A stretch of 64,000 nt of DNA from Tubiluchus corallicola (lineage: Eukaryota; Animalia; Priapulida): positions 1-64,000 of the forward strand of contig JAQGDQ010002385.1 of NCBI GenBank assembly GCA_030141605.1. The letters are read 5' to 3'. Every line of letters starts with the position of its first letter. Within the stretch, counting starts at the first letter, position 1. The notes under the pieces are model-generated. The model searched no databases, had not been told where the DNA came from, and saw only the letters and a list, made by a program, of their open reading frames with translations. Positions 23,608 through 48,138 of this stretch are shown here, one piece after another. The position numbers and the translations under genes are program-made.

Positions 23608-23970
23608 CCTGAGAATAGATTAAGCTGCTGATAGAGTTCGTTATTGATTTAAAATACTTTTTAATTTGCACTTTCGTATGCCTATAAATAAAGATTTTAT
23701 TGATTATATTTGCGAACAAGTCGCAAAAGTAAGAGATATCACAAGCCGAAGGCATTGATTTTTAAGGGTTCTTATTTCTGGTCACGGGGAGATCTCCTAG
23801 AAAAACAGAGAGCATTTAGCGGAAATTTAAGCCTCAAACATCACAATATACTGAGACAAAAAATGTCTTAAATAGAATCTCGCCTAGCTCTAAAAGCTTA
23901 CAAACACTGGCTTTTAGGAACTAGCTTAACTATATTTCGGGGAATATACGAAAAGTTAGAAAATAATAAA

Positions 23971-24008
23971 CTGGCGGTGGATTCGAATCCCGTTAACAAC
24001 CGTTCTCT
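23971..24008 (-). other. Possible att-like tRNA 3'-end remnant at the prophage boundary
   Basis: Minus strand CGGGATTCGAATCCACCGCCA (T-loop plus CCGCCA end); lies just left of the first phage-type gene. Confidence 0.3.
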
Positions 24009-24288: not shown

Positions 24289-24549
24289 ATGCAAAAACAA
24301 ATATATTTAAGTGAACACGAACTGGCTGAAAAATGGGGGATATCTCCTAGAACTTTACAACGCTGGAGGTGGCTTAACCAAGGGCCAAACTACCTTAAAA
24401 TCGGAGGTCGCGTCAGATACAGACCTGAAGATGTAGATGCTTTTGAGAAGAAGCGTTTCTGCCAGATACAGGACAATCCCAATAATGATAATGCCAACGT
24501 TTCTGAGGAGTACGGATACAGTATCACGCTTAATGGCCAGAAGCTATAA
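24289..24549 (+). CDS. Excisionase/AlpA-like HTH DNA-binding protein
   Basis: LSEHELAEKWGISPRTLQRWR...GPNYLKIGGRVRYR; AAAGGA RBS. Confidence 0.85.
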   Translation: MQKQIYLSEHELAEKWGISPRTLQRWRWLNQGPNYLKIGGRVRYRPEDVDAFEKKRFCQIQDNPNNDNANVSEEYGYSITLNGQKL

Positions 24550-25205
24550 GGCACCATAAGTTGACCCTTATTTCGTTTAAGGGTCATTATACGGTGCTTT
24601 ACGCTTCTTTCAAATGCATCCACTTCCAAGCTCTTTTTCGCAATATTGTAAACACCCTCCCAGCAATCCACACAAGGAATATTGCTGTCTTGATAACTGT
24701 TGTGCGGATGCTTTATAAGGATTGATAACAATCCCAGTTTCTCACCAAGCACGGCATTCTCAAACTTATCCTCAATCCAAAGAAGTCCAGAGTTTTTATA
24801 GCGTGACAAGGCTTCTGTCTTATCACCTGCAGTTGGCAGGCAGACCAGTTCTTTAAAAATACCTTTTCCAAAAACGGTTTCAAGATTGTGGAGGCGTAAT
24901 GCTTTTGCATGCTCTGCTTCACTAAGCGCTGTAATCGCAACAAAGTGCCAGCCTTCCTGAAACATCTTCCGCACATAATAAACGGCGTTTCTGATTGGCT
25001 CTAGCATTCCCTGTTGTAAACAGTGATTGAATTCTTCAACGAGCTTCATGCCTGCTTCTTGTGATACGCCAAGTCTATGGGCAATATCATAGACCTTTTC
25101 TGTCGCATGTTTTGTAACCATACCTCTTTCTCTTGCCCAAGCATTAAAGCCTTTTTCCCAGTCTAATAAAACGCCGTCAACATCGGTCAGAATAATCTTG
25201 CTCAT
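24390..25205 (-). CDS. HAD-superfamily phosphatase/5'-nucleotidase-like protein (T4 gp30.2-like)
   Basis: IILTDVDGVLLDW (DxD motif I), AITA, K, WIEDK..NA (motif IV); AAGGAG RBS; C-terminal tail overlaps the HTH gene antisense. Confidence 0.82.
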   Translation of the reverse strand: MSKIILTDVDGVLLDWEKGFNAWARERGMVTKHATEKVYDIAHRLGVSQEAGMKLVEEFNHCLQQGMLEPIRNAVYYVRKMFQEGWHFVAITALSEAEHAKALRLHNLETVFGKGIFKELVCLPTAGDKTEALSRYKNSGLLWIEDKFENAVLGEKLGLLSILIKHPHNSYQDSNIPCVDCWEGVYNIAKKSLEVDAFERSVKHRIMTLKRNKGQLMVPYSFWPLSVILYPYSSETLALSLLGLSCIWQKRFFSKASTSSGLYLTRPPILR

Positions 25206-25253
25206 GCGATCTCCTTCTATTGTTAAAGATGCTCACAATATACTTGATATTTG

Positions 25254-25268
25254 CGTCTGAAATGGACG
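25254..25268 (-). promoter_or_regulatory. DriD-type operator box for the HAD gene
   Basis: Minus strand CGTC-CATTTCA-GACG, followed 11 nt later by TATATT (25242-25237). Confidence 0.65.
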
Positions 25269-25294: not shown

Positions 25295-25309
25295 CGTCCA
25301 TAAATGTCG
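25295..25309 (+). promoter_or_regulatory. DriD-type operator box for the thermonuclease-DUF2779 operon
   Basis: CGTC-CATAAAT-GTCG, followed 11 nt later by TATTTT (25321-25326). Confidence 0.65.
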
Positions 25310-25348
25310 CTTATGAAGTTTATTTTTATTGAAAAATTGGAGGCGATT

Positions 25349-25810
25349 ATGTTAAAACTATTGAAGATTGTTTTGATTTGTTTGTTTTTTTCTTCTCCCG
25401 CTTATGCTGGGATAAAGGTTGTCGATGGTGATAGCTTGAAGATCAATGGAGCAAAAGTAAGGCTGTATGGCCTTGATGCTCCTGAGCATGATCAAACTTG
25501 CAAAGCAGATAGCTCTGAATACTCTTGTGGGCAGGATGCCAAGATAGCTCTTCAAGGTCTCATAACGGATGAAACCTTCTGTGTTATCAAGGGTGGAGAT
25601 CGTTACAAAAGGGTTCTGGCTATTTGTTATAACGGCAATAAGGATATCAATGCAGAGCTTGTAAGAAGAGGTTTTGCGGTGGCTTACGTCCGATATGCAA
25701 AAGATTATGTGAAACAGGAAAGCGAAGCAAGACAAAACAAAGCCGGTATATGGCAAGGAGAATTTATAAATCCTGAAGACTACAGGAAAAGGAAAAAGCA
25801 TGGCAAGTAA
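25349..25810 (+). CDS. Thermonuclease (SNase family) with signal peptide
   Basis: VVDGDSL, VRLYGLDAPE, DRYKRVLA, NAELVRRGFA, GIWQG; GGAGG RBS before ATG 25349; signal ending AYA. Confidence 0.92.
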   Translation: MLKLLKIVLICLFFSSPAYAGIKVVDGDSLKINGAKVRLYGLDAPEHDQTCKADSSEYSCGQDAKIALQGLITDETFCVIKGGDRYKRVLAICYNGNKDINAELVRRGFAVAYVRYAKDYVKQESEARQNKAGIWQGEFINPEDYRKRKKHGK

Positions 25811-27284
25811 ACCGAAAATTTCAAAATCACAATATGTTAAGGGGCTGCAGTGTCCCAAGGCACTTTGGTTCTATCGTCACCGTAAAGAACTCAAACCACC
25901 CATTGATCCTGCTACGCAAGCTCGCTTTGATGCGGGGAACGAGATCGGGCAACTTGCCATGGCGTATTTTGAAGGTGGCGTTGAAGTTACCGATGCTTAT
26001 TGGGAGATTGAGAAAGCCGTTGCATCCACTCAAAACTTCATCAAACAAGGACATGAGATCATCTTTGAGGCAACGGCTCTTCATCCAATAGACGGTGGTT
26101 ATTCCCGCATTGATGTTTTGCGTAAAGTACCGAACAGTGATGAATGGGATTTGATTGAGGTCAAAAGCTCTACTGGGGTTAAGGATTATCACATCGATGA
26201 TATGTCGTTTCAATATCATGTCTTCTTTGCCGCAGGTTATAAAATCAGGAAATGTCTGATGATGGTGATTGATAATACTTACGTCCGACAAGGTGAGATT
26301 GAGCCTCAAAAACTCTTCAAGCTGGAGGATATTTCAAACGAAGTCTTTGCCAAGCAAAGTGATGTTGATTACTGGGCAGCACAGCTGGGTTATGTTCTTG
26401 ATCGCAAGGATGAACCGGATATTAAAATTGGCGAGAGATGCTTCAATCCATTTGAGTGTGAATATCGCCACCATTGCTGGAAGCATATTCCAAAGTATTC
26501 GGTGTTTGATATTTATCAAAAGAAAAAGACGGGCGAGATCATCAATCAGATCGGAAGCTATGACATCAAAGACATTCCGCCAAACCTTTTTCCTAACGGA
26601 GCCAAAGCCATTGATGTTGATTGCTATCAATGCGATAAAGAGCATGTTGAGAAAGAGCCTATTCGTGAGTGGTTGGCCGGTCTTGAATATCCGCTTTATT
26701 ATCTGGACTATGAAACGCTCATGCCCGCTATTCCTTTGTTTGATGGCACACGACCTTTTCAGCAGGTACCATTTCAATTCTCGCTTCATGTGCAGGAAAG
26801 CCAAAATGCCGAGCTGAAACATTTTGAGTTTATTCACAAAGAGCAGTCTGATCCAAGAGAAGCCTTTGCCAAAGCATTGGTTGAGCTATGCGGAAAATCT
26901 GGCTCCGTGATTGTTTATAATCAAGGCTTTGAAATGGCACGCAATCGAGAGCTGGCTGATGATTTTCCACAATATGCAGATGGACTTCTTGCAATCAATG
27001 ATCGTGTCATTGACCTGCTGGAGCCATTTAAAAAGCGTTGGATTTACAGCCCGAAACAACAAGGGTCTGCATCGATTAAATATGTTTTGCCGGCTTTTAC
27101 CGATTTGAAATATGAAGATATGGGGATTGCGAATGGGCAAGAAGCGATGGATGGATATCTCGCCTTTGCAAAAGGAAATGTATCACCAGAGCAGTCGCAT
27201 ATTTTGTGGAAAAATCTATCTGAATACTGTAAGCTCGATACCTATGCAATGGTTGAGTTGCTGGAAATGTTGAAAAAGATATAA
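25800..27284 (+). CDS. DUF2779 protein: Cas4/RecB-like PD-(D/E)xK nuclease plus DEDD/RNase H-like exonuclease domain
   Basis: ISKS...QCPK, RIDVL..LIEVKSST, C..P..C.Y...C cluster; YLDYET, VYN..FE, YCKLDT. Confidence 0.85.
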   Translation: MASKPKISKSQYVKGLQCPKALWFYRHRKELKPPIDPATQARFDAGNEIGQLAMAYFEGGVEVTDAYWEIEKAVASTQNFIKQGHEIIFEATALHPIDGGYSRIDVLRKVPNSDEWDLIEVKSSTGVKDYHIDDMSFQYHVFFAAGYKIRKCLMMVIDNTYVRQGEIEPQKLFKLEDISNEVFAKQSDVDYWAAQLGYVLDRKDEPDIKIGERCFNPFECEYRHHCWKHIPKYSVFDIYQKKKTGEIINQIGSYDIKDIPPNLFPNGAKAIDVDCYQCDKEHVEKEPIREWLAGLEYPLYYLDYETLMPAIPLFDGTRPFQQVPFQFSLHVQESQNAELKHFEFIHKEQSDPREAFAKALVELCGKSGSVIVYNQGFEMARNRELADDFPQYADGLLAINDRVIDLLEPFKKRWIYSPKQQGSASIKYVLPAFTDLKYEDMGIANGQEAMDGYLAFAKGNVSPEQSHILWKNLSEYCKLDTYAMVELLEMLKKI

Positions 27285-27290: not shown

Positions 27291-29297
27291 CTAAGCCTGT
27301 TCTTTGTATTGATATTTTTTCTTGTCAACTTCACTAATAAATCTTGAGGGGTTATCAAAGAATGCGGCGTATGTTGCAAAATATGCTGGAGCCGTCAAAT
27401 AGAGGCTTTCTTTAGCACGGCTACAGGCTACATAAAACAATTTACGCTCTTCCTCAAGTTGCTCATAATCTTCAAACGATTTATAGTGAGGCACTGCTCC
27501 ATCTATGAGAGAAACAACAAAAACGGTATTCCATTCAAGTCCTTTTGCACTATGAATTGTTGAAATTGTTACGGAATCCTCATTGGGTTCTGCTGATGTG
27601 AAAACAGCCTTTGAATCGTTTGGTGGATCAAGAGCTAGGTTGGAAAGGAAATTTTCAATGTTTCCATATTCTGCACACAATCGTTTTAGAACTTTAAAAT
27701 CTTCAATTCGATTTTTCCAATCTTCTTCAACTTTCTTTAAGACCGGAGTGTAGTATTTTTCAATTATATCGAAAGCTGCAATTAATGATGGAGCTTCACT
27801 GGCAGAATTTAGTGCATCATATAGAAGTTTTATGTTTTCATTTTTCTTTACGTAAGAGCTATTTTTTAACGGCGTTAACTTTCCATCTTCATCCTGAATT
27901 TCTTTTGTAATTTTATTTGCCGTAACATTTCCAACACCCTCTAAGATTGTTACAATACGATGCCACGAAATAGCATCAAGTGGGTTCCATAGTATTTTCA
28001 AATAAGCTAAAATATCTTTAACATGTCGTTTTTCTATAAATTTTATTCCTCCTACCACAACAAATGGAATGCCTCTTTTAAGGAACTCTGCCTGCACAAA
28101 ATTTGAATGAAAAGAAGTTCTGCACAAGACAGCCATCTCTTTGTACTCAAGCCTCTCTTTTGATTTGATAATTTTATCTGCAATAAATTGAGCTTCCTGC
28201 TCTTCATTCGTACAGCGTATAAATTCAGGCTTTTTCCCTTTTCCCTTATCTTCAGAAAATAAATCCTTTTTATAACCAAGTGATATCTGATCGGAAACAT
28301 TATTAATAAATCCAAGTATACTTGGTGTGCTTCGATAATTTTGCTCTAGTTTTATAAGTTTAGCATTAGGGTATGTCTCACCAAATAGCAATATGTTCTC
28401 ATAATTTGCACCTCTAAACGCATAAATGCTTTGATTATCATCGCCAACTACCATTAATGAACAGAAATCTTTTTCCGCCAGTAAATCTATCAGTTCTTTT
28501 TGAGGAAGGTTGGTATCTTGGTATTCATCCACCATAATGTATTGGTATTTTTTATGGACGCTTTCTTTAAATCTAGAATTGGATTTTAGATGGTGATTTA
28601 TTTCGTCTATCAAATCATCATAATCATATAAGCTATTGGCTTTTTTATACTTGCTGTACATTTTAGAAAGCTCGAGTATTTCAGGAATGTAGCACTTAAA
28701 GTTAGGGTAATTCTGCTCTACAATTTTTTCTATAGGAATCAGCTTGTTTCGAGAGGAGGATATAATGTTTTGAATAACAGATTTTCTTGGGAATGGAATT
28801 TCCTCTTTTTTCTTCATACCAGCTTGCTTTTTTAGCAAATCAATTAAGTCCCTAGAATCCTCTTGATCAAGAATAGTAAATTTAGGGTTTATTCCAAGCA
28901 TTTTAGAATATCTTGCCAGTAGCATATTACAAAAAGAGTGAAAGGTTCCGCTTGTAACATTGTTTGAAATATCTCCACCTAACAGCTGGTTTACACGTTT
29001 TTTTATTTCCCCAGCCGCTTTTTTAGTAAATGTTAAAATAAGTATTTTTTCTGCACTTATGCCATTTTCAAGCAAAAAGCTTGTTCTGTATGTAAGTGTT
29101 CTGGTTTTTCCAGATCCTGCTCCTGCAATAACCAATGTTTTCCCATCAATCGTTGTTGCTGCCTCTAATTGCCCTGGATTTAACTCTTCTTGATATTTAA
29201 TCTTATATTCTTTATCTGTAAAATCTCTATTTTCTGTTGAAAAATTATTTTCAAGATTTGAAATTACGGTCTTAAGACGTTTAATTTTTGTTTCCAT
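27291..29297 (-). CDS. UvrD/Rep/PcrA-family SF1 helicase
   Basis: AGAGSGKT, VDEYQD, VGDDNQSIYAFRGA, LEQNYRS, TIHSAKGLEW, EERKLFYVACSRA. Confidence 0.95.
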   Translation of the reverse strand: METKIKRLKTVISNLENNFSTENRDFTDKEYKIKYQEELNPGQLEAATTIDGKTLVIAGAGSGKTRTLTYRTSFLLENGISAEKILILTFTKKAAGEIKKRVNQLLGGDISNNVTSGTFHSFCNMLLARYSKMLGINPKFTILDQEDSRDLIDLLKKQAGMKKKEEIPFPRKSVIQNIISSSRNKLIPIEKIVEQNYPNFKCYIPEILELSKMYSKYKKANSLYDYDDLIDEINHHLKSNSRFKESVHKKYQYIMVDEYQDTNLPQKELIDLLAEKDFCSLMVVGDDNQSIYAFRGANYENILLFGETYPNAKLIKLEQNYRSTPSILGFINNVSDQISLGYKKDLFSEDKGKGKKPEFIRCTNEEQEAQFIADKIIKSKERLEYKEMAVLCRTSFHSNFVQAEFLKRGIPFVVVGGIKFIEKRHVKDILAYLKILWNPLDAISWHRIVTILEGVGNVTANKITKEIQDEDGKLTPLKNSSYVKKNENIKLLYDALNSASEAPSLIAAFDIIEKYYTPVLKKVEEDWKNRIEDFKVLKRLCAEYGNIENFLSNLALDPPNDSKAVFTSAEPNEDSVTISTIHSAKGLEWNTVFVVSLIDGAVPHYKSFEDYEQLEEERKLFYVACSRAKESLYLTAPAYFATYAAFFDNPSRFISEVDKKKYQYKEQA

Positions 29298-30265
29298 TTA
29301 TTTACCTCCCCAAGCATCTCTTGATATTTCTGCTTTAAATGATCTGGGGCAATGATTTCAACATCCTTGCCCCAAGTGAACAGGTGCCAGCACATTTCCA
29401 TCCAACCTCCTGCCGTAAAGGTCACAAGCAATGATCCGTCGTCCTGCTCGTCAAAGACCTGTGTCGGGTGGAATTGATATTCTTTAGCACGCTCCGCAAC
29501 ATCACTTGAAAACTTCCACACAACCTTAAAAGGCTCTTCCTGAAACACTCCGAAAGACCTCTCGGCATAATTTTGCAAAGAGAATGAACGTTTGCGTGTG
29601 AAAGGCTTGTCTGTGATAACAGCTTCCTGAATATTGGAAAGGCTGAACATGCGGAAATCTTTCGCCTTATCGCACCAAGCAATCATGTAATGACGGTTTC
29701 CGTATAAAAATCCGTAAGGAGCGACAACGCGTTCGGATGTCTCTTCTTCGTGGATAGGTTCGCAAGTGATTTTAACTTTCAGGCAAGCTTTAACAGCATT
29801 GCGGAGTGTGTTTAAAACTTCCCCTTTAATCTTTAGTTTTGGTCCCGGACGCATCGCAAAACCTTCCGCCTCAAGCAAAGCTTCCAGGTCTGTTTCCAGT
29901 TTGGCTGCTTGATCGGCACGCACAATGCTTTTGATCTTGATCGCAAGGTTTTCAAGGATGTCTGCCGGCTCTTCCAAGTTATCACGACGCAAGCGAGTAA
30001 TAGCAGCCTGAAGCTCTGCAAGCTCATCCGCATCAAAGCGAGTAAGCGAAGAGAATTTGCCGGATGGAATACGCCAACGCTTATTACGCCCTTCTTTAAT
30101 CTCAATCATCTGAGGCACAAGTCGCCCAATCACATCACGCATACGTTCAGCCGTACGACGACTAACGTTAAACTCCTGTGCAATGTCTGTTGTTGAAACG
30201 CCCTCGGCAGTTGATTGCATCCAGATCGCAAGTTTTAGAAGATTTTCAGCTTGTTCAAAGCGCAT
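29264..30265 (-). CDS. HTH-WYL-WCX transcription regulator, DriD-like
   Basis: VSRRTAERMRD..PQM..KRWRIPSG resembles the recalled Caulobacter DriD N-terminus; WYL core R.VAPYGFLYGNRHYMIA...FRMFSL..I; CWHLFTWG. Confidence 0.9.
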   Translation of the reverse strand: MRFEQAENLLKLAIWMQSTAEGVSTTDIAQEFNVSRRTAERMRDVIGRLVPQMIEIKEGRNKRWRIPSGKFSSLTRFDADELAELQAAITRLRRDNLEEPADILENLAIKIKSIVRADQAAKLETDLEALLEAEGFAMRPGPKLKIKGEVLNTLRNAVKACLKVKITCEPIHEEETSERVVAPYGFLYGNRHYMIAWCDKAKDFRMFSLSNIQEAVITDKPFTRKRSFSLQNYAERSFGVFQEEPFKVVWKFSSDVAERAKEYQFHPTQVFDEQDDGSLLVTFTAGGWMEMCWHLFTWGKDVEIIAPDHLKQKYQEMLGEVNKWKQKLNVLRP

Positions 30266-30346: not shown

Positions 30347-30361
30347 CGTCCATGAGTGTCG
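30347..30361. promoter_or_regulatory. Third DriD-type box in the WYL/hsdM divergent region
   Basis: CGTC-CATGAGT-GTCG; 13 of 15 nt identical to the box at 25295. Confidence 0.6.
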
Positions 30362-30409: not shown

Positions 30410-30499
30410 CTAAATTAAAATTATGTTCCTTAATCTGTGAAGGATTAAATGCATATGTGAGTGATAACCAAAGACAGAAAAAACATAGGAAGCAACAGC

Positions 30500-32047
30500 A
30501 TGACAAGTACTCAACAACGTGCGGCACTGCAGCGCCAGATCTGGCAGATCGCCAACGATGTACGGGGCGCAGTAGATGGCTGGGATTTTAAGCAGTATGT
30601 ACTCGGTACGCTCTTTTATCGTTTTATCAGTGAAAATTTTGCCAGCTACATCGAAGCCGGTGATGACAGTATTCACTATGCAGAACTGGACGATGGGGTC
30701 ATCACTCCGGAAATCAAAGATGATGCCGTTAAAACCAAGGGCTATTTCATCTACCCCAGCCAGCTGTTTGCGAATATTGCAAAGGGTGCAAATACCAACG
30801 ACAGTCTGAATACCGACCTCGCCGCCATCTTTACCGCCATTGAAAGCTCTGCCAACGGTTACCCGTCGGAAGTGGATATTAAAGGCCTGTTTGCCGACTT
30901 TGATACCACCAGCAACCGCCTCGGAAATACCGTAGCCGACAAGAACACCCGTCTGGCCGCTGTGCTCAAAGGGGTGGCCGGGCTTGACTTCGGTGATTTT
31001 CACGGCAGCCAGATCGACCTGTTTGGCGATGCCTACGAGTTCCTGATCTCAAACTATGCCGCCAATGCCGGTAAATCCGGCGGTGAGTTTTTCACCCCGC
31101 AGCATGTTTCAAAACTGATCGCACAACTTGCTATGCATAAACAAGAACATGTAAACAAGATTTTTGACCCTGCCTGCGGTTCCGGTTCATTGTTGCTACA
31201 GGCTAAAAAACATTTTGATGCCCATATTGTTGAAGAAGGATTTTTCGGTCAAGAGCTTAATCATACTACATACAACTTGGCACGCATGAATATGTTTTTG
31301 CATAATATAAACTATGATAAGTTTAATATTCAGCTTGGGGATACACTGATCAATCCACACTTTGGCGATGACAAACCTTTTGATGCAATTGTTTCCAATC
31401 CACCTTATTCAGTGAAATGGATTGGATCAGATGATCCAACATTGATTAACGATGATCGTTTTGCACCTGCTGGCGTACTTGCCCCTAAATCCAAGGCAGA
31501 CTTTGCCTTTGTTCTCCATGCATTAAGTTATTTATCAAGCAAAGGACGTGCAGCAATTGTTTGCTTCCCGGGTATTTTTTACCGTGGCGGAGCGGAACAA
31601 AAAATCCGAAAATACTTGGTTGATAATAACTATGTTGAAACCGTGATTTCACTTGCACCAAACTTATTCTATGGAACAACTATTGCCGTAACGATTTTAG
31701 TTCTGGCTAAAAATAAGCCTGATACGAACGTTCAGTTTATTGATGCCAGTGGTGAAGAATTCTTTAAAAAGGCAACCAATACAAACATTATGCAGGATGA
31801 TCATATTCAAAAAGTTATGGATATATTCGACAGCAAAGAGAATGTTGCTCATACTGCTGAATCTGTGCCATATGAAAAAATTGTGGCAAATGAGTATAAT
31901 TTGTCGGTTAGCTCTTATGTTGAGGCAAGAGACACGCGTGAGGTTATTGATATTGCAAAATTAAACACCGAGATAAAAACAACGGTTGGAAAGATAGACC
32001 AGCTCCGCAATGATATTGACGCGATTATTACGGAGATCGATGCATGA
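30500..32047 (+). CDS. hsdM: Type I RM methyltransferase subunit (type IC)
   Basis: [20 protein letters not shown]; probable start 30500. Confidence 0.97.
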
Positions 32048-33294
32048 GTAATATGAGTTTTATAGAAAAGTTATTGGGCGGTGCAGAGGTTGAATGGTTG
32101 CCTTTGGGGGAAGTAACTCAATACGAACAACCGACTAAGTATCTTGTAAAAAACAAGAATTATAGCGATGAATTTGAAACACCTGTTTTGACAGCAGGAA
32201 AAACTTTTATTCTTGGATACACGGACGAAACTAACGGAATTAATAAGGCATCAGAAAATCCTGTAATCATTTTTGATGATTTTACTACTGCTAATAAATG
32301 GGTTGACTTCGACTTTAAAGCAAAATCATCCGCAATGAAGATGATTTCGTCTAGTAATAAAACTAAGTTTATTCTAAAATATGTGTATTATTGGATGAAC
32401 ACTTTACCGAGTGATTTGATTGATGGAGATCATAAGCGTCAATGGATCAGTAATTTTTGCAACAAAAAAATCCCCATCCCATGCCCTGATAATCCAAAGA
32501 AGTCGCTTGAGATTCAAGGGGAAATTGTCCGAATTTTGGACAATTTCACGGAGCTTACAGCGGAGCTTACAGCGGAGCTTACAGCGGAGCTTACAGCTCG
32601 TAAAAAACAATACAACTACTATCGCGACCAACTCCTTACTTTTGATGAGGATGAAGTTGAATGGAAACCTTTGGGTGATGTTGGTGATTTAGTGCGAGGT
32701 AATGGATTGCCAAAAACAGATTTTACGGAGAATGGCGTGCCAGCTATCCATTATGGTCAAATTTACACCTATTATGGCCTATCAACAAAATCTACTATTT
32801 CGTTTGTTTCTCCTGAAACTGCAGAAAAATTACGGAAAGTAAATACTGGTGATGTTATTATAACAAACACAAGCGAAAACTTCGAAGATGTAGGAAAATC
32901 TTTGGTCTATCTAGGTGAACAACAAGCTGTTACTGGAGGGCATGCAACAATATTTAAGCCTAGCAAAAAGATTTTGGGCAAATACTTCGCCTATTTTACT
33001 CAAACTGCAACATTTGAAAAATTAAAAAGAAAATATGCAAAAGGAACAAAAGTTCTTGATGTTTCTGCAACTGACATGGCGAAAATAGAAATTCCCATCC
33101 CATACCCAAACAACCCCGAAAAGTCTTTGGCTGAACAAGCCCGCATTGTTGCAATACTCGATAAGTTTGATACTCTTACAAACTCGATAAGCGAAGGGCT
33201 TCCACACGAGATTGAACTCCGCCAAAAACAATATGAATATTATAGAGATTTACTGCTAAATTTCCCAAAACCTGAGGATCAAAAATATGCCTGA
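32044..33294 (+). CDS. hsdS: Type I RM specificity subunit (EcoR124I family)
   Basis: Two TRDs, IPIP..SLEIQ.EIVRILD conserved regions, TAEL repeats, [10 protein letters not shown]. Confidence 0.96.
32549..32597 (+). repeat. 12-bp tandem repeat (GAGCTTACAGCG, ~4 units) encoding three TAEL repeats
   Basis: Seen directly in the sequence. Confidence 0.95.
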
Positions 33295-36200
33295 ACAAAC
33301 TAAACCTATCGCAGAGTCAAAAAACTTTATCGTCCTTGATAAATATACCAAAGAATGGGAGATTGCTGAAAGCTATCAAAGTGAAGCAGATTTGGAGCGT
33401 GAGCTTATCCGTGATTTAGTTAATCAAGGTTATGAGTTTTTACCTGAACTAACAACCCCAGATGCGATGCTTTCTAATGTGAGATTGCAGTTGCAAGCTT
33501 TGAACAACGTAATCTTTTCTGAAGGTGAATGGTTACGATTTGTTGAAACTTACTTAGATAAACCCAGTGATAATCTGATCGATAAAACCCGTAAAATCCA
33601 TGACGATTATATCCATGATTTCACATTTGATGATGGTCGCATTCAAAACATCTACCTGCTTGATAAAGCAAATATCTCTCGCAATAAGGTGCAAGTAATA
33701 AAACAATTTGAACAAACCGGCACACATGCAAACCGCTATGACGTAACAATATTGGTTAACGGTTTGCCATTGGTTCAGATCGAACTTAAAAAGCGTGGTG
33801 TTGCTATCCGTGAGGCTTTTAACCAAGTCCACCATTATAGCAAAGAAAGCTTTAACTCTGAGCATTCTTTGTTTAAATATTTGCAAATGTTTGTTATTTC
33901 CAATGGTACGGATAGTCGTTATTTTGCCAACACAACAAAGCGTAATAAAAACAGCTTTGATTTTACGATGAATTGGGCAAAGTCAGATAATAACCTGATT
34001 AAAGATTTAAAAGATTTTACGGCGACTTTCTTTCAGAAAAACACCTTGCTCAATGTATTGCTTCATTACTCTGTTTTTGATGTTAATGATACATTATTGA
34101 TTATGCGTCCTTATCAGATTGCGGCTACTGAGCGTATTTTATGGAAAGTCAAAAGTTCGTATCAGGCTAAAAATTGGTGTAAGCCTGAAAGCGGCGGATA
34201 TGTGTGGCATACAACAGGTTCCGGAAAAACTTTGACCAGCTTTAAAGCTGCACGTTTGGCCACAGAACTTGATTTCATTGATAAGGTGTTTTTTGTGGTT
34301 GATAGAAAAGACCTCGACTATCAAACCATGAAAGAATATCAACGTTTTTCACCTGATAGCGTGAATGGTTCTGATAGCACTGCGGGGTTAAAGAAAAATC
34401 TTAGTAAAGATGATAACAAAATCATCGTTACCACAATCCAAAAGCTCAACAACCTGATGAAAAGTGAAAATGATTTAGATATTTATAACAAACAGGTGGT
34501 GTTTATTTTTGATGAATGCCATCGCAGCCAGTTTGGTGAGGCTCAGAAAAACCTAAAGAAGAAGTTTAAGCAGTTTTATCAATTTGGTTTCACAGGTACG
34601 CCAATATTTCCACATAACGCTTTGGGATCTGAAACAACAGCCAGTGTTTTTGGACGTGAGCTACATTCCTATGTAATTACCGATGCTATTCGTGATGAAA
34701 AGGTTTTGAAATTTAAGGTGGATTACAACGATGTTCGTCCGCAATTTAAAGCGATTGAATCGGAGCGAGATGAGAAAAAATTGAGTGCTGCTGAAAATAA
34801 AAAAGCCTTTTTGCATCCTGATCGTATTCGCGAAATATCCGGGTATATCTTAAATAGCTTTCGTCAAAAAACCCATCGTTTGCAAGGAGGCAACAAGGGC
34901 TTTAATGCTATGTTTGCCGTTAATAGTGTGGATGCTGCTAAGATGTATTATGAAGCCCTGAATTCATTGCAGGCTGATAGCGAGAAATCATTAAAGATTG
35001 CTACAATCTTTTCATTCAATGCGAACGAAGAACAAGATGCCGTTGGTGATATTCCTGATGAAAGCTTTGATGTTTCCGCAATGAACAGCAGCGCCAAAGA
35101 ATTCTTAAGTGCAGCTATTAAGGACTATAATGCATTTTTTAAAACCAATTTCAGCGTAGATAGCAAAGGTTTCCAAAATTATTACCGTGATTTAGCAAAG
35201 CGTGTTAAGTCACAGGAAATTGATTTGTTAATTGTGGTGGGCATGTTCTTAACCGGATTTGATGCCCCGACACTGAACACCTTGTTTGTCGATAAAAACC
35301 TGCGCTATCACGGTTTGATGCAGGCATTTTCCCGCACCAATCGCATCTATGACGCAACCAAGACATTCGGCAATATCGTTACTTTCCGGGATTTAGAGCA
35401 GGCTACTGTAGATGCCATTACTCTCTTTGGCGATAAAAACACCAAAAACGTCGTGCTTGAAAAAAGTTATAAGGAATACATGGATGGGTTTTGTGACGCA
35501 ACAACAGGGGAAGCACGCCGTGGTTTTGTAGATGTCGTGGCAGAATTGGAGCAACGCTTTCCAAACCCTGAGACAATAGTTAAGGAAGCAGACAAGAAAG
35601 CCTTTGCCAAACTCTTTGGTGAATATTTGCGCGTAGAAAATATACTTCAAAACTATGATGAATTTGCCAGTTTAAAAGCATTGCAAGCAATTGATCAAAA
35701 CGATGAGATTGCGATACAAGAATTTAAAGAAAAGCATTATTTGAATGATGATGACTTGGAGGTATTAACAGCTATTAAAATTCCTGCCGAACGTAAAATT
35801 CAAGATTATAGATCCGCATACAATGATATTCGGGACTGGCTACGCAAAGAAAAAGCTTCCGATGAGCAAGAAAAATCCTCTGTAGATTGGGAAGATGTTG
35901 TGTTTGAAGTCGACTTGCTTAAATCTCAAGAGATCAATCTAGACTACATATTAGAGCAAATATTTGAGAATAATAAAAAGGTAAAAGACAAGTCTGAGCT
36001 CGTTGAAGATGTGCAAAGAATGATCCGCTCCAGCCTTGGCAATCGAGCTAAAGAGAGTTTGTTGGTTGATTTTATTAACCAAACAGATCTTGATAAAATT
36101 GGCGATAAAGCAAGTGTGATTGATGCTTTCTTTACTTTTGCTCAAAGTGAACAAAAACGTGAAGCGGAGGAATTAATCAGCTCTGAAAGCTTAGATAAAG

Positions 36201-36388
36201 AAGCCGCAAAGCGTTATATAACTGCTTCAATTAAACGTGAATTTGCGACTGAAAACGGAACAGAGTTAAACTCTATATTGCCTAAAATGAGTCCTCTAAA
36301 CCCAGAATACCTAACCAAGAAACAAACCGTTTTTCAAAAGATATCTGCATTCGTTGAAAAATTTAAAGGCGTAGGCGGAGAGATTTAA
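33287..36388 (+). CDS. hsdR: Type I RM restriction subunit (EcoR124I-like)
   Basis: [17 protein letters not shown] nuclease motif, [35 protein letters not shown]. Confidence 0.97.
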
Positions 36389-36415
36389 GGAATATGAGCA
36401 ACTGATGGAGCAGAA

Positions 36416-37699
36416 ATGGCAGCACATCATACAACAAAAGAACAACGCCGAATGCTTGCAGACAGGATGAAAAATCCTGATGATGAGTTAAAGCTCGTTA
36501 TTGTTAGGGATATGTGGCTGACAGGGTTTGATGCTCCTTCTATGCATACGCTTTATATTGATAAGCCTATGAAGGGACATAATCTTATGCAGGCAATCGC
36601 TCGGGTAAACCGTGTTTATAAGGATAAGCCGGGTGGACTTGTTGTTGATTATCTCGGTATTGCTTCGGATTTGAAAAAGGCATTGTCCTTTTATTCAGAT
36701 AGTGGCGGAAAAGGTGACCCTGCAATTGCTCAGGAACAAGCCGTTAGCATGATGTTGGAAAAACTGGAAGTGGTCTCTCAAATGTTTCATGGCTTTACTT
36801 ATGAGGATTATTTCAATGCGGACACTTCGACAAAACTTTCAACAATCCTTGCTGCTGAAAACCATATTTTAGGGCTTGAAAATGGAAAGAAGAGATTTAT
36901 TGATGAAGTATCCGCTCTTTCACAAGCTCTGGCAATTGCCATTCCACATGAACAGGCAATGGATGTTAAAGAAGAAGTCGCTTTCTTCCAAGCCATAAAA
37001 GCTAGGTTATGTAAATTTGATAGCAATGCATCCGGAAAAACAGATGAAGAAATAGAAACAGCGATAAGACAAGTTATTGATGAAGCTCTTGTTTCAAATC
37101 AGGTGGTGGATGTGTTTGATGCTGCCGGCATTAAAAAGCCTGATATCTCAATTTTATCCGAAGACTTCTTGCTTGAGATTAAGGGGATGGAACATAAAAA
37201 TGTTGCCCTTGAGACATTGAAGAAACTTCTCAATGATGAAATCAAAACCCGCACGAAAAAGAACCTTGTGCAGAGCCGATCTTTGATGGAGATGTTGGAA
37301 AATTCTATTAAGAAATACCATAACAAAGTGCTGACCGCAGCGGAGGTTATTGATGAGCTGATAAAATTAAGCAAAGATATTCAAAAGATGGATAAAGAAC
37401 CGGAAGAAATGGGATTATCCGAGTTTGAATACGCTTTTTACACAGCTGTTGCAAACAATGACAGTGCAAGAGAGTTGATGCAACAAGATAAACTGAGAGA
37501 GTTAGCAGTTGTTCTGACTGAAAAAATCAAACAAAATGCATCTATTGATTGGACGATTAAAGAAAGCGTGAAATCAAAACTAAAGGTGATCGTAAAAAGA
37601 ACACTACGTCATTTCGGCTATCCACCAGACATGCAAAAACTTGCAACTGAAACTGTTTTGAAACAGGCTGAATTAATCGCAAATGAAGTGATAGGATAA
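36416..37699 (+). pseudogene. hsdR: C-terminal half of a second, different HsdR (DUF3387-type tail)
   Basis: Has MWLTGFDAP and [10 protein letters not shown] plus DWT...L...GYPPD tail, but lacks nuclease, Walker A and DEAD motifs. Confidence 0.85.
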
Positions 37700-37708
37700 G
37701 GAGAAAAT

Positions 37709-39775
37709 ATGCAAGCACAAGAAAAAACACTTATAGAATTTTTAAGAGATAAACAGCAATTTACAATTCCTATTTATCAAAGAACATACAGCTGGACATC
37801 AAAACAATGCCTTAAGCTTTGGGAAGATATTCAAGAAATTGCAAATAATGGTGAAGTTGAATATCACTTTATGGGATCTATTGTGAGAATTAAAAGAAAG
37901 CTCGACACAAGCGAGATTTCTCAACAAATAATCATTGATGGCCAGCAAAGAATTACCACTCTGTTATTGCTTATCTCGGCGCTTATTCAAGCAACACAAA
38001 GCAAAGAACGTTCTGAAGAATTGCAAGAATTATATCTGATTAACCGACATGGAAAAGATGAACTCAAATATAAAATGCTACTTACACAACAGGACAAATC
38101 ATCTTTGATCGATATTATAGAAAATCGTCCTAACGCAGTATTAAATTCAAAAAGAATTAAAGAGAACTTTGAATTTTTCAAAGAAGAGATAGCAAAATCA
38201 AACCCTGAAAAAATATATGCAGGAATTAGAAAACTTATGATTGTAGATATTTCTCTCGATCCTGAACATGATAATCCCCAACTTATATTTGAAAGCCTAA
38301 ACTCAACAGGACTGGAATTATCACAAGCAGATCTTATCCGGAATTATGTTTTAATGGGATTAGCCCCTAAGCATCAAGAGGAGCTTTATCATAATTACTG
38401 GAGAGCGATGGAAAAAGACTTTGGCCAAACAGACTATACACTCTTCTTTGATCGTTTTATGCGTGATTATTTGACCATTAAAACAGGGACAATCCCAAAT
38501 ATCAAAAATGTTTATGAAACATTTAAAATTTATTTTTCTAAGCAAGGAGGTATTGATAACGTTGATAATGTTATTGCTGATGTACACAAGTATTCAAAAT
38601 ACTTCGTACGAATGGCTTTAGAAAAAGAAGAAAATATAAAATTAAGAGAAGCGTTTTCTGATCTTAACGATTTAAAGGTTGATGTTGCCTACCCATTTTT
38701 GCTGAATATTTATAGTGATTTTGAAGAAGGTACTATCAATCAAGAAGCTTTCTTGGATGTTTTAAACTTCATTCAAAGCTACGTATTTAGAAGATTTGTG
38801 TGTGGGATTCCTACTAATTCCTTAAATAAAACTTTTGCAACTTTATATAAATCAATAGATAAAGAAAATTACTTAGACAGCCTAAAAGCCGCTTTTGTTT
38901 TCATGTCAAATTACAGACGTTTCCCAAGTGATATTGAGTTTACTAAAGAGCTGAAAGAAAAAGATTTATACAACACAAAGAATAGAAATTTCTGGTTAAG
39001 AAGATTTGAAAATTATAACAGAAAAGAACGTGTCAAAGTAGAAGAATATACCATTGAACATATCATGCCTCAAAATACCAACCTTTCAAATGAATGGAAA
39101 GAAATGTTGGGAGAAAATTGGAAATACGTTCATGAAAATTACTTGCACACAATTGGCAATTTAACTTTAACAGGTTATAACTCAGAGCTAAGTGATAAAC
39201 CTTTCTTTCAAAAGAAAAGTATGGAAGGTGGTTTTGACGATAGTCCTTTAAGACTTAACAGAAGTTTGCAACAAGTTTCTGATTGGAATGAAATAACGAT
39301 CAAAGAAAGGGCTGAGGTGCTTGCAAAAACCATGATCGAAATATGGGCATATCCGACGGTATCAGAAGAAGTTCTAGAAAAATATAAACCTGAAATAGAG
39401 AAGAAAGAAGGAAAAGTCTATACAATTGAAGATCATCCTTTCCTAACAGAAGGACCAATGAAAGAATTATTTGAAATCGTTCGAAAAAGAATTCTTAACA
39501 TTGATGCTTCTGTTAAAGAGGAGTTTTTAAAGCTGTATGTTGCTTATAAGGCGGCTACAAACTTTGTAGATATAGTGCCTCAGAAAAGCAAACTGCGTCT
39601 TTCTTTAAATATAGACTATGAAGAAATATATGACCCTAAAAACATTTGCACAGACGTTACAAACAAAGGTCGCTGGGGCAATGGAAATACAGAGGTTAAT
39701 TTATCCTCTCCTGAACAATTAGAGGACGTTCTTGATCTGATCAAACAGGCATTTGAAAAAAACTCAGAAAGTTAA
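37709..39775 (+). CDS. GmrSD-family (DUF262+DUF1524) restriction enzyme with extra C-terminal domain (DUF5655-like)
   Basis: IPIYQR.YSW, IIDGQQRITT, IFESLNSTG; HNH-type TIEHIMPQ..IGNLTL..N; C-terminal KLYVAYK...GRWGNG. Confidence 0.9.
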   Translation: MQAQEKTLIEFLRDKQQFTIPIYQRTYSWTSKQCLKLWEDIQEIANNGEVEYHFMGSIVRIKRKLDTSEISQQIIIDGQQRITTLLLLISALIQATQSKERSEELQELYLINRHGKDELKYKMLLTQQDKSSLIDIIENRPNAVLNSKRIKENFEFFKEEIAKSNPEKIYAGIRKLMIVDISLDPEHDNPQLIFESLNSTGLELSQADLIRNYVLMGLAPKHQEELYHNYWRAMEKDFGQTDYTLFFDRFMRDYLTIKTGTIPNIKNVYETFKIYFSKQGGIDNVDNVIADVHKYSKYFVRMALEKEENIKLREAFSDLNDLKVDVAYPFLLNIYSDFEEGTINQEAFLDVLNFIQSYVFRRFVCGIPTNSLNKTFATLYKSIDKENYLDSLKAAFVFMSNYRRFPSDIEFTKELKEKDLYNTKNRNFWLRRFENYNRKERVKVEEYTIEHIMPQNTNLSNEWKEMLGENWKYVHENYLHTIGNLTLTGYNSELSDKPFFQKKSMEGGFDDSPLRLNRSLQQVSDWNEITIKERAEVLAKTMIEIWAYPTVSEEVLEKYKPEIEKKEGKVYTIEDHPFLTEGPMKELFEIVRKRILNIDASVKEEFLKLYVAYKAATNFVDIVPQKSKLRLSLNIDYEEIYDPKNICTDVTNKGRWGNGNTEVNLSSPEQLEDVLDLIKQAFEKNSES

Positions 39776-39968: not shown

Positions 39969-40184
39969 TTATTGCCCACACCGTTCCTCCCATTCCTGAT
40001 TATAGTCATCAATCTGGCGGATGGTTTCCATGGATAGCTTGTTGTCCAGCTCGTCTTCTGTGACCGTGATTGGCTTTGCCCAGAGGCAGAAATTATCGAC
40101 GGGTGTATTTGCGCATGCGTTTAGTGACAGTATCATCAGTATCATTGCGACGCTTTGCACGCCTTTTTTGAGTTTTAAGGGCAT
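39969..40184 (-). CDS. Rz1-like outer-membrane spanin (lipoprotein)
   Basis: Lipobox LNAC, internal Cys; overlaps the Rz-like gene in another frame. Confidence 0.7.
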   Translation of the reverse strand: MPLKLKKGVQSVAMILMILSLNACANTPVDNFCLWAKPITVTEDELDNKLSMETIRQIDDYNQEWEERCGQ

Positions 40185-40308
40185 CGTCTACTCCTTTTTT
40201 AAGTTGCTTGTGTTGTTCACTACTTTTACCTTTGAAGTATCCAAAGATAAAAACTGCAGAGAGCAGCCCAACAGCCACTCCCGCTTTAATTAAAAGTCCT
40301 TCGATCAT
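40093..40308 (-). CDS. Rz-like inner-membrane spanin
   Basis: N-terminal TM followed by a basic coiled region; follows holin and endolysin. Confidence 0.65.
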   Translation of the reverse strand: MIEGLLIKAGVAVGLLSAVFIFGYFKGKSSEQHKQLKKGVDDALKTQKRRAKRRNDTDDTVTKRMRKYTRR

Positions 40309-40544
40309 TTCTTCTCCTTACTTTGAATGCCTTTTTCAAAAACACCGATCCCAAGAAGTCCGCCACCGGATATTAAAAACATGTTAATAATCCCAAGAGC
40401 GGTTGCAGCGTCGGCAGCACCTTTTGATAAGCTGTAAATGAATAAAATGACTGAGAATAAAATCCCAATCCCGAGAACGATTGATCCCCAAAGACGTTTT
40501 GAGGATTTGTTGCCATTGGCATCTTCTAAAAAACTGTTTGTCAT
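40305..40544 (-). CDS. Putative holin
   Basis: 79 aa, two TM segments, GNKSSKR motif, charged C-terminus, adjacent to endolysin. Confidence 0.65.
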   Translation of the reverse strand: MTNSFLEDANGNKSSKRLWGSIVLGIGILFSVILFIYSLSKGAADAATALGIINMFLISGGGLLGIGVFEKGIQSKEKK

Positions 40545-40546
40545 GG

Positions 40547-40942
40547 TTAAACTCCTTTTAATTCAAAATGTGGTAAGTCGAAAAATGTTTGATCGTGAAG
40601 ATCGTTATCACCGTCCCAGTCAGCTCCGCATCGAATGGAAATACCAAGCTGATCCGCAACTCCTTTGACGTATCCAACAAAGTGATAAAAGCGGATGCGG
40701 TCGTTCCAGTTAATTGGATATGGAGCCACATCCACTGCAATGGACGGATTTTCGTTGTGTTTACTAAAACCTGCACGAAGTTTGGATTTGCCTTGATGAT
40801 AAAGCTCTTCCTGACGCTCAAATGATCTGTGACCTTCCAAAATGGTGCAGTCATATTTTTTGATGACTTCATTAAAAAGTCTCTGCAAATCGGCATGACA
40901 AGTCGCCAGCCGTTCCGCAGAACGGTTGCTGAATTTAGGCAT
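40547..40942 (-). CDS. Endolysin, M15 L-Ala-D-Glu peptidase family
   Basis: EGHRS..RQ..L, SKH..AVD, DLPHFE zinc motifs. Confidence 0.92.
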   Translation of the reverse strand: MPKFSNRSAERLATCHADLQRLFNEVIKKYDCTILEGHRSFERQEELYHQGKSKLRAGFSKHNENPSIAVDVAPYPINWNDRIRFYHFVGYVKGVADQLGISIRCGADWDGDNDLHDQTFFDLPHFELKGV

Positions 40943-40961
40943 ATTATTCTCCTGAAGTTGG

Positions 40962-41612
40962 TTAGTGAGTTATTTTGAGGCCTTTGTAGGTTAATCCCGA
41001 AAGGTCTCCATTGAGATCATCGAGCGTGCGTTCTGCATCAATGATCGTTGCATGAAAGGCCGCAAGAAGCAGACCTAACATTCCGTTGAGACGAGCTACG
41101 TTATTTTCATAAAACGAACTCATGCAAGTATCTTCGATACCGTCCATCACAAAAGAAACTGAACGGCTGTGCCATTTTGCAAACTTCTTAATGACGGGGT
41201 TTGGTATCCCCATGTCTTTTGCTTCTTGTTCATATTCTTTAACGGAAGCAGTTACGATCTTGGTTATGTAATCTTTAAGCTCTATCCGACGCATTTTGGG
41301 GATATCTTTATTTCCAACGACCTCACGCATGACAATATCGAACACTCGAAACTTGATATGCAGAAAGTCCTTGAATATAAGATCACGGGCTGGCTCCTCA
41401 ATCTCTATGGCATCAATTCCTATCTTGCGCCAATAGTCCATTGAGCAGAAGAAAGAATGCTTGATCAGTTGGGATTGCTTGAGTGTTTTCCGTGTAAAAA
41501 GAGTTGTCTTTTCTGCCCACTTCTTTAAAAGCGGAATGGCAACGGTTAAAATCACTGCAATTGCAACTGTCCACAGACCATACTGGTCAATCATCGAAAC
41601 ATATTCTTTCAT
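40962..41612 (-). CDS. Phage membrane-anchored hypothetical protein
   Basis: N-terminal TM; between late control D and endolysin. Confidence 0.6.
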   Translation of the reverse strand: MKEYVSMIDQYGLWTVAIAVILTVAIPLLKKWAEKTTLFTRKTLKQSQLIKHSFFCSMDYWRKIGIDAIEIEEPARDLIFKDFLHIKFRVFDIVMREVVGNKDIPKMRRIELKDYITKIVTASVKEYEQEAKDMGIPNPVIKKFAKWHSRSVSFVMDGIEDTCMSSFYENNVARLNGMLGLLLAAFHATIIDAERTLDDLNGDLSGLTYKGLKITH

Positions 41613-41621
41613 TTTATTTCC

Positions 41622-42620
41622 TTATAATTTTATCGGCTTCTCGCAAGTCAACTGGCAAGTGTAGCCCTCATTTGCAAATTGATGAGAAACCGAAACGGCA
41701 ATCCATTCACCATCTACTTTTTTACTTAGATTGTTTACAAATACACGCGCTTCAGCAGAGATGGTTGGATCACCTACAATGGTTAAATACAGCTTTTCCT
41801 TTCCGTTCATAACTTCTTCAAGTTTGGCCTCGGCTGCCTTTAAAGCTCTGTCCTTGGTGGCGTAGGTATGCCGCATTGAAAAAGCAGGCTCTTCACTTCC
41901 TGCCTCAACTTTTTCTTCTTTACCTGTTTTGAAATTGTGCCACTTCGCAATGACTTTTCCGTATTTCCCACGCTCCGCCAAGTTCATGGAAAACGTTGAA
42001 ACATTCTGTGGTTTCAGCTCCACGATCGGCATGGACGCACCGGTTAAGGTTGTTGCTCTTTTCTTTCTTGAAAAAATAAGCAAGCCGTTAGCCGGTTTTA
42101 CAAAAGCCCCGAAGTCCTGTGCCAATCTTTGCAAGAACGCAATATCGCTCTCATCCGTTTGATCCATGTGGCCAAGGTAGATTTTATCAAAGGCAGTATC
42201 GATCAAAGCGTCATCAAAAGCATGCTCCTTGGCGATTGTTGTGATAACTCCGATCAAGGTGTGTTTATGCCAAGACCTTGATTTTGGGGCGGTCATTGCA
42301 CTGAAACTGTCCTTCATCTTTGTGTTGGAAGCCTTGGCAGTAATTCGCATCTGCCTTGGCATGCCCGAACACTCAACCTCATCAACAACATACAGCCCCA
42401 TTTTATAAAGTCCTGTATCTTCATAACCGAGGGAGATTTCAAGCTCCGCCCCACGCGATGGTATCTCGAGCTTATCGTCACGATCATCAAGCAAGATTTC
42501 TGCTTTATCTGAAATCAGCCCTGTCTCATCAGTGATACTGATTGAAGCAAGGCGGTTCGTTAAGGTTTCGGTAATATCAGCCTTGTCAGCAAGTATTTTG
42601 AAAATAGGCTTCATGACCAC
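41622..42620 (-). CDS. Late control/baseplate hub protein (P2 gpD-like)
   Basis: RLASISITDE.G..SD, LGYE, DQTDESDIAFLQRLA. Confidence 0.9.
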   Translation of the reverse strand: MVMKPIFKILADKADITETLTNRLASISITDETGLISDKAEILLDDRDDKLEIPSRGAELEISLGYEDTGLYKMGLYVVDEVECSGMPRQMRITAKASNTKMKDSFSAMTAPKSRSWHKHTLIGVITTIAKEHAFDDALIDTAFDKIYLGHMDQTDESDIAFLQRLAQDFGAFVKPANGLLIFSRKKRATTLTGASMPIVELKPQNVSTFSMNLAERGKYGKVIAKWHNFKTGKEEKVEAGSEEPAFSMRHTYATKDRALKAAEAKLEEVMNGKEKLYLTIVGDPTISAEARVFVNNLSKKVDGEWIAVSVSHQFANEGYTCQLTCEKPIKL

Positions 42621-42817
42621 AGCCTCACAGTTTCTTGATTTTTCTGCGTGTTTATTTCAGGTAGGACGATCTCGATACCGGCTTCCAAGACGGCATCATA
42701 GTTTTCAAGGTGACGATTGTTTTCTAAAACCTTTTCAACTGTGCCGTTTGTGTGGCCGTAGTGCTTCCAGCAGATATAATCCAATGTGTCACCATCTTTT
42801 GTTTTATAAACAATCAT
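42611..42817 (-). CDS. Tail protein X (LysM-like)
   Basis: YKTKDGDTLDYICWKHYG...LP...VRLWS. Confidence 0.9.
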   Translation of the reverse strand: MIVYKTKDGDTLDYICWKHYGHTNGTVEKVLENNRHLENYDAVLEAGIEIVLPEINTQKNQETVRLWS

Positions 42818-45751: not shown

Positions 45752-45756
45752 GTCAG

Positions 45757-45915
45757 TTACTCTTTATTGATCTCTTTTTGAACGGAAAGAGCCGTGTCAT
45801 ACCACTCAGCAAAGTCCTCCTCATACATTTCAAGGATTTCGTTTAAGCTCCAGTGAGTTATTTTTGAGAGGATGACAACGGCTCGTTTGATATCCCCTCG
45901 TGTTTGAAAAAACCC
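45757..45915 (-). CDS. GpE'-like -1 frameshift extension of the tail assembly chaperone
   Basis: -1 frame after G GGT TTT reads FFQTRGDIKRAVVILSKITHWSLNEILEMYEEDFAEWYD...KE* (HWS..EI..M GpE motif). Confidence 0.85.
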   Translation of the reverse strand, partial: GFFQTRGDIKRAVVILSKITHWSLNEILEMYEEDFAEWYDTALSVQKEINKE

Positions 45916-46142: not shown

Positions 46143-46151
46143 ATTTACCTC

Positions 46152-46652: not shown

Positions 46653-46670
46653 TGTTGGCTCTCCTTTGGT

Positions 46671-48136: not shown

Positions 48137-48138
48137 GG

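Follow-up and report, generated by a model that had tools for sequence, protein, structure and literature searches.

The stretch of DNA analyzed here (the window) comprises 64,000 nucleotides (nt), positions 1 to 64,000 of contig JAQGDQ010002385.1 in the Tubiluchus corallicola assembly GCA_030141605.1. Two overlapping nuclease genes, one encoding a thermonuclease family protein (SNase) and the other a protein of the DUF2779 family, are located at the end of a prophage, together with DriD-type promoter boxes and a gene for a homolog of DriD, a regulator of Caulobacter crescentus. The parts are known, and what is new is their arrangement, a prophage-borne DriD-type mini-regulon containing DUF2779. 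The central features are as follows, in window coordinates.

24390..25205, minus strand: phage HAD-like phosphatase, divergent (phrog_420, E-value 6e-32; weak phrog_415; DxD motif by eye)
25237..25242, minus strand: predicted -10 element of a leftward promoter, 11 nt from box 1
25254..25268, unstranded: DriD-type box 1
25295..25309, unstranded: DriD-type box 2, 41 bp from box 1
25321..25326, plus strand: -10 element predicted for the promoter of SNase-DUF2779, at 11 nt from box 2
25339-25343, plus strand: ribosome-binding site of SNase
25349..25810, plus strand: open reading frame (ORF) of SNase (PF00565, E-value 4.7e-17)
25800..27284, plus strand: DUF2779 protein, 494 amino acids (PF11074 over residues 300-425, E-value 2e-45)
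29264..30265, minus strand: DriD-like regulator with winged helix-turn-helix (wHTH), WYL and WCX domains
30347..30361, unstranded: DriD-type box 3, between the WYL gene and hsdM, with no -10 element at the distance seen for DriD; kept in locus L001

The 11-nt overlap of the SNase and DUF2779 ORFs is present as described in the first-pass annotation of this DNA, and the two genes are probably co-transcribed from one predicted promoter. In G001, a relative with a 95%-identical DUF2779, nucleotide identity begins about 12-17 nt 5' of the DUF2779 ATG, so that the last SNase codons lie in the start region that belongs to DUF2779 itself.

The regulatory signal, which together with the prophage setting was overlooked in the first-pass annotation, is the stronger one. 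DriD boxes have the form CGXC-N7-GXCG (PMC10853764) and keep a constant distance to the -10 element (PMC13004042). This distance, 11 nt after the core, was taken from the promoter sequences in the methods of the latter paper, and the pattern scanned was CGWC-N7-GWCG. The core box occurs three times in the 64 kb, compared with 0.65 expected (three were reached in 1 of 100 shuffles), and two of the three occurrences fall in the 143-bp gap that separates the HAD gene from SNase. When a -10 element is required at 11 nt, two strict matches are found in the window, both in this gap, box 2 pointing toward SNase-DUF2779 and box 1 toward the HAD gene; 15 simulated windows contained two matches in total, and 680 kb of control DNA one strict match. 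Paired boxes 40-46 bp apart are also found in L003, L188, L182, L109 and L110. Counting a strict 17-bp box in 5 genomes gave no information at the genome-wide level and was set aside. An alternative SNase start at 25304 was rejected as well, because it falls within box 2 and thus ahead of the predicted -10 element.

The WYL protein matches the DriD structures 9PFQ/8TP8 with an E-value of 1.5e-57, and its recognition helix is identical to that of DriD (R37, E40, R41). Other WYL entries are matched at 5e-6 and 5e-4, the latter value belonging to 7TB5, which we take to be a repressor-type structure. The identification of the gene as a BrxR/CapW-type repressor was dropped, given the DriD match (1e-57, as opposed to 5e-6 and 5e-4).

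The association of DUF2779 with DriD-like genes extends to other genomes. In a class-level sample of 401 alphaproteobacterial genomes, DUF2779 is encoded in 12 and a DriD-like gene in 38; with the centre genome left out, 7 of 11 DUF2779 genomes carry a DriD-like gene, compared with 30 of 389 others (p = 8e-6). Among 31 DUF2779 genomes, a DriD-like gene is present in 11, each of which has a copy no more than 8.3 kb away. In 9 of the 11 linked loci (one with a mismatch), a box with its -10 element points toward the transcription unit that contains DUF2779; the exceptions are G001 and G003. The layouts vary, comprising a WYL-DUF2779 operon, DUF2779 first, or another gene first; the gene in the first position behind the DriD-type promoter is exchangeable, and in the window it is SNase. 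The offset of 11 nt accounts for 21 of 64 box orientations in the linked loci (the next best offset for 6) and for 1 of 89 in the controls, and no promoter match is present in the 28 DUF2779 loci that lack a linked DriD-like gene. No paper linking DUF2779 to WYL or DriD was found in literature searches that did not extend to the supplements of PMC10853764 and PMC12392091.

Some linked loci are more elaborate. The islands L246, L248 and L249 (in G335, G023 and G204) contain 4 or 5 DriD-type promoters, with DUF2779, ankyrin-repeat proteins, an SprT-like protein, PDDEXK_4 and several unknown paralogues as targets. A double-AAA ATPase, often accompanied by a metallo-beta-lactamase-fold RNase-like gene, is recurrent behind DriD-type boxes with or without DUF2779 (L112, L247, L250 and L256). 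In another WYL clade, CGAC-N8-GTCG palindromes lie between divergent WYL and DUF2779 genes (L013:3080-3300 and L092:2990-3150).

The DUF2779 protein scores 154.5 bits against PF11074, for which the curated cut-off is 23.3. It consists of a Cas4/RecE-like PD-(D/E)xK domain with a 1+3 Cys arrangement (residues ~1-231), a helical linker and a DEDDy-type 3'-5' exonuclease domain (~296-494). Both domains had been noticed at first pass, and conservation bears them out: C18, C214, C220 and C226 are each kept in 119-120 of 120 close homologs, all four are present in 188 of 219 full-length diverse homologs, D105/E120/K122 are retained in 218 of the 219, and D303, E305, E378, D405, Y476 and D480 are each conserved in at least 228 of 233 alignment rows. 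We tentatively take E378, not D405, as the third catalytic acid of the exonuclease, following the ExoII pattern. Structure prediction, which had been proposed as a check, recovers both nuclease folds. The AlphaFold model has a predicted local distance difference test (pLDDT) score of 95.6, and in fold searches residues 1-231 match Cas4 7mi4 (Z 13.6, root-mean-square deviation (rmsd) 3.8, 188 aligned), with Cas4 4ic1 (Z 12.4-12.5), RecE, EXO5 and AdnAB as further matches of the N-terminal domain; residues 283-494 match MrfB 8un9 (Z 11.7, rmsd 3.8, 168 aligned), and residues 296-494 match PolB proofreading domains (Z 13-14). Fold searches alone gave these relatives; the PDB yielded no match to a sequence profile built from the DUF2779 alignment.

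The architecture itself is already known. The family has been described as a Cas4-like and DEDD fusion with a quasi-essential member, MMSYN1_0389, in JCVI-syn3.0 (PMC13621843), and a 3'-5' exonuclease with a PD-(D/E)xK partner domain had been predicted before (RNase H-like family F.17; PMC3985635); the available portions of two further papers merely list a DUF2779 member (PMC7373297, PMC6690266). The earlier remark that DUF2779 has no established function still holds for the literature, although the architecture is published. The window protein shares with MMSYN1_0389 and the PF11074 family the fusion of a Cas4-like PD-(D/E)xK domain to a DEDDy exonuclease and the conserved catalytic residues; it differs in that its clade keeps all four Fe-S Cys, whereas MMSYN1_0389 has two, and in that this clade is carried by prophages and has a DriD-type promoter in front of it. 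The fold and the 1+3 Cys are also shared with CRISPR-associated Cas4, but no linkage of DUF2779 to cas1/cas2 and an array was found in the window or among the scanned neighbors of other loci. In agreement with the first-pass annotation, a repeat search found no CRISPR-like array in the 64 kb, and Cas1 had no match among 48 window ORFs (Pfam) or 6 further phage ORFs (PHROGs).

The DUF2779 profile finds 12,099 clusters (50% identity) at an E-value of 0.001, and DUF2779 is encoded on 32 of 72,556 plasmids; no model in PADLOC 2.0 (library from 2023) matches it at an E-value of 0.1. Several relatives carry split or truncated WYL or DUF2779 ORFs (L004, L009, L020 and L108), so that loss of the module is frequent. 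In one protein of 1403 amino acids (P0198), a Z1-domain protein is fused to an entire DUF2779 protein.

SNase retains D26, D28, R38, D43, E46, D84 and R88, aligned with the active-site positions of staphylococcal nuclease, the roles of which we assume for the matched residues. Its N-terminus has a basic N-region, a hydropathy peak of 3.1 and A-Y-A before G21 (hydropathy and motif, judged by eye). This fits the Sec type and makes the signal peptide proposed earlier plausible, but the segment may instead be a signal anchor.

According to the first-pass annotation, SNase and DUF2779 form a dedicated pair acting in two compartments, periplasm and cytoplasm, to destroy DNA that enters from phages or by conjugation. 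The gene overlap and the shared predicted promoter agree with this proposal, as does the persistence of the junction, which is bridged in contigs of four other studies (4 of 7 non-source sequencing runs: X3, X4, X6 and X11), with nucleotide identity over the SNase-DUF2779 block of ~92% in X6 and ~90% in X11; runs X5, X8 and X9 yielded pieces only and are not counted. Prophage-encoded extracellular DNases are, moreover, known to block transformation in Campylobacter (PMC4004267). The CJIE1/2/4 DNases, exported and carried as prophage cargo, resemble SNase, for which export is probable; they differ in that the available text does not report them as SNase-family or WYL-controlled and they have no cytoplasmic partner. 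The wider family, however, does not show the pairing. From 131 fetched DUF2779 loci, 6 near-identical ones were dropped, leaving 125 non-redundant loci (the short duplicates L095-L107, L119 and L120 were also dropped before counts). SNase is found directly upstream of DUF2779 in 0 of the 98 loci with at least 600 bp of upstream sequence, and two of the 125 (L185 and L186) have one within 6 kb, both times downstream, non-adjacent and beside RepC or ArdC. G001, which has the same prophage right end, has no SNase before DUF2779, and among 42 genomes with a DriD-like gene, SNase adjoins that gene in G269 alone, without a promoter match and without DUF2779. The missing neighbors do not reflect a failure of sensitivity, because the SNase profile found 13 other SNases in the fetched loci. 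A family-wide partnership was rejected on these counts: SNase is a local passenger in a narrow prophage lineage, not a fixed partner of DUF2779, and a dedicated two-compartment system is quite unlikely. In a viral contig encoding a relative of the HAD protein (L272), an SNase gene lies ~1.6 kb downstream on the same strand.

WYL and defense genes, by contrast with SNase, are linked to DUF2779 elsewhere, as emerged from the enrichment statistics that the first-pass annotation had suggested. We compared 60 DUF2779 loci flanked by 8 kb or more to 40 control windows of 17 kb from the same contigs, in the genomes of 24 DUF2779-carrying contigs. A WYL gene lies within 6 kb in 12 of the 60 loci and 1 of the 40 controls (p = 0.013); restriction-modification (RM) or defense markers, self-hits excluded, are present in 18 and 3, respectively (p = 0.011), and one or the other in 28 and 4 (p = 1.5e-4). 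The neighbors of DUF2779 include type I, type III and MmeI-type RM, McrBC, GmrSD, BREX, AbiE, Shedu, TOTE and integrases, and also plain metabolic genes.

In the window, the two nuclease genes are embedded in the following prophage features.

23968..23992, unstranded: left end of the shared element, attachment-site (att)-like; by eye, similar to a fragment of a tRNA 3' end (minus strand)
24289..24549, plus strand: excisionase-like helix-turn-helix protein (PF12728; phrog_66 excisionase)
27291..29297, minus strand: UvrD-like helicase, occupying the variable cargo slot that separates DUF2779 from WYL
30461..39775, plus strand: second variable slot, with type I RM (hsdM, hsdS, hsdR), a second hsdR fragment and GmrSD-DUF5655
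39976..64000, minus strand: prophage lysis, contractile tail, head, portal and terminase genes

Matches to contigs from four further studies begin at 23968-23972, with loose ends, and no intact tRNA was found in the 64-kb window. An endolysin is among the prophage genes on the right side, and the 39976..64000 block is 85-93% identical in nucleotide sequence to the G001 region adjoining the DUF2779-WYL block of that genome. The slot between DUF2779 and WYL is empty in X4 and X6, is 1695 nt longer in X11 and holds a VRR-NUC pair in G001; the second slot is occupied in G001 by a type III-like RM block. Because the slots between and beyond them hold exchangeable cargo, DUF2779 and WYL frame a defense hotspot. 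No WYL relatives were found in viral contigs, and neither WYL nor DUF2779 was found in 68 viral loci chosen by endolysin, HAD or SNase.

The HAD-like protein has 17 viral relatives and only 1 weak match in the 401 genomes; its single-sequence structure model (pLDDT 36) is unusable. At 24617-24618, six other runs (X3, X4, X6, X8, X9 and X11) have one base fewer than the window, and it is due to this additional base that the HAD-like ORF of the window extends to 271 amino acids, beyond the family match, which stops at about residue 204, and runs into the excisionase-like gene.

The interpretation to which we lean, if only by a little, is a unit for DNA clearing, inducible by single-stranded DNA (ssDNA), at a prophage defense hotspot. 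Its regulatory component, DriD-type switching, is well supported and can be held with considerable confidence; the purpose we infer. The WYL protein would bind ssDNA and activate transcription, as DriD does, with box 2 driving SNase-DUF2779 and box 1 the divergent HAD phosphatase. DUF2779 would then degrade linear DNA, the Cas4/RecE-like domain in the 5'-3' direction (stapled by an Fe-S cluster) and the DEDDy domain in the 3'-5' direction. The usual substrate would be foreign DNA cut by the neighboring, swappable restriction systems, making the unit an inducible clean-up device of the lysogen, and SNase would, in this lineage alone, add DNA degradation outside the cytoplasm. In keeping with such a scheme, DriD activates the nucleases recJ and bapE (PMC9186387), the WYL activator DdaA drives RM defense (PMC12392091), and WYL sensors respond to restricted infection (PMC13622015, PMC11662680).

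A number of observations weigh against the DNA-clearing unit. It is built on sequence, fold and statistics, and the activity, binding and expression are predicted. In 20 of the 31 DUF2779 genomes a DriD-like gene was not found (the genomes are incomplete metagenome-assembled ones, searched with one query), and the DriD link is therefore optional. G001 has DUF2779 and WYL yet no promoter match, and box 3, in front of the RM operon, lacks the -10 spacing. There are close kin among the linked loci (G023/G204 and G002/G571), so that the independent cases number fewer than 9. The WYL profile and the RM marker seeds were built from the very loci compared, which favors enrichment, and kinship was ignored; 32 of the 60 well-flanked loci have neither WYL nor RM/defense markers. 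A housekeeping role would fit as well, because the mycoplasma member of the family is quasi-essential without phage (PMC13621843). Finally, the ssDNA ligand of the window protein is not assured: codon 168 encodes Cys where DriD, L001, X3 and X4 have Tyr, and of the pocket residues, R178, Y192 and R204 are kept, whereas R176, W206, R207 and Y240 differ from DriD across the whole clade. The Y168A substitution abolishes activation by DriD (PMC9186387), and the sensor may be impaired, or the circuit weak, in the window copy.

The same private Cys at the ssDNA-binding Tyr position, along with the 1-nt difference from six other runs near the end of the HAD gene and the truncated second hsdR, could be read as signs that the operon is decaying or neutral cargo, silent in this strain, and that its genes do not act together. 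Decay is nevertheless very unlikely: neither nuclease ORF is interrupted or lacks a catalytic residue, the two boxes and their -10 elements are intact, and the block recurs in conserved form in other studies.

Under the same regulation, the unit could also respond to DNA damage or prophage induction, resecting or salvaging DNA, by way of the exonuclease, the HAD protein as a nucleotidase and the exported nuclease, for repair or for the lytic cycle of the phage and not for defense, a possible but rather unlikely explanation. The known DriD targets recA, recJ, dnaG and didA are repair and checkpoint genes (PMC9186387), DUF2779 resembles MrfB, a repair exonuclease, in its C-terminal domain and RecE and AdnAB in its N-terminal one, the quasi-essentiality in JCVI-syn3.0 (PMC13621843) fits, and the HAD-like gene, predicted to be co-regulated, has lytic-phage relatives. 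Against a repair or lytic role stands the company that DUF2779 keeps, with RM, GmrSD, McrBC, BREX, AbiE and Shedu genes enriched or frequent beside it; moreover, DUF2779 has no match among 50,697 INPHARED phage records and is found in only 4 IMG/VR loci, and so is not typical lytic-cycle equipment.

A further, unlikely possibility is that DUF2779 amplifies the WYL alarm, turning the ends of restriction-cut phage DNA into short ssDNA that activates the DriD-like sensor. The activated sensor would in turn drive the production of more DUF2779, closing a positive feedback loop, and in the window lineage it would also switch on an exported nuclease to clear DNA on the far side of the membrane. The origin of the WYL cue in restricted infection is left open in the available text of PMC13622015, and DUF2779 as amplifier, if true, would name the missing enzyme that generates this cue.

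Among known systems, the DriD regulon of C. crescentus (PMC9186387, PMC10853764, PMC13004042) has in common with the DNA-clearing unit a homologous wHTH-WYL-WCX protein, the same box and box-to--10 distance, and nucleases as targets, here predicted ones. Unlike that regulon, the one in the window is local and mobile, lying at a prophage end, and has back-to-back promoters; its predicted targets are DUF2779, SNase and the HAD protein, and several residues of the ssDNA pocket differ. DdaA of Moraxellaceae (PMC12392091) is likewise a WYL activator that ties DNA damage to RM defense, but is described as a chromosomal global regulator replacing SOS, whereas the window regulator travels with its few targets. 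BrxR/CapW (PMC13622015, PMC11662680) share the layout in which a WYL gene, ssDNA-sensing there and presumably here, heads exchangeable defense cargo on a mobile element, but are repressors, and the window protein is far closer to DriD (E-value 1e-57) than to 7TB5 (5e-4). DriD, known as a chromosomal damage regulator, is thus suggested to ride prophages as well, running small local regulons beside defense cargo. DUF2779 is a very large family that includes a quasi-essential minimal-cell gene, and a predicted ssDNA inducer, a named regulator and exact promoter coordinates make its role directly testable.

The remaining observations concern the cargo and the surroundings of the prophage. The second hsdR (36416-37699), N-terminally truncated and of another subtype (T1RH-like C-terminus), lies behind the complete type I RM system and is a leftover of earlier cargo. 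Four 12-bp tandem repeats occupy the hsdS spacer (32549-32597); such repeats set the spacing of the recognition site in type IC systems. In the tail region, an RCC1-repeat protein and an Mtd_N-domain protein (49289-50980 and 48139-48984) possibly form a receptor-binding module. A delta-type carbonic anhydrase (PF10563) is encoded at 21450-22343, just outside the prophage end, and a 291-nt inverted repeat (79%; 14922-15212 and 20398-20688) comprises the starts of two paralogous glycosyltransferases in a low-GC polysaccharide cluster.

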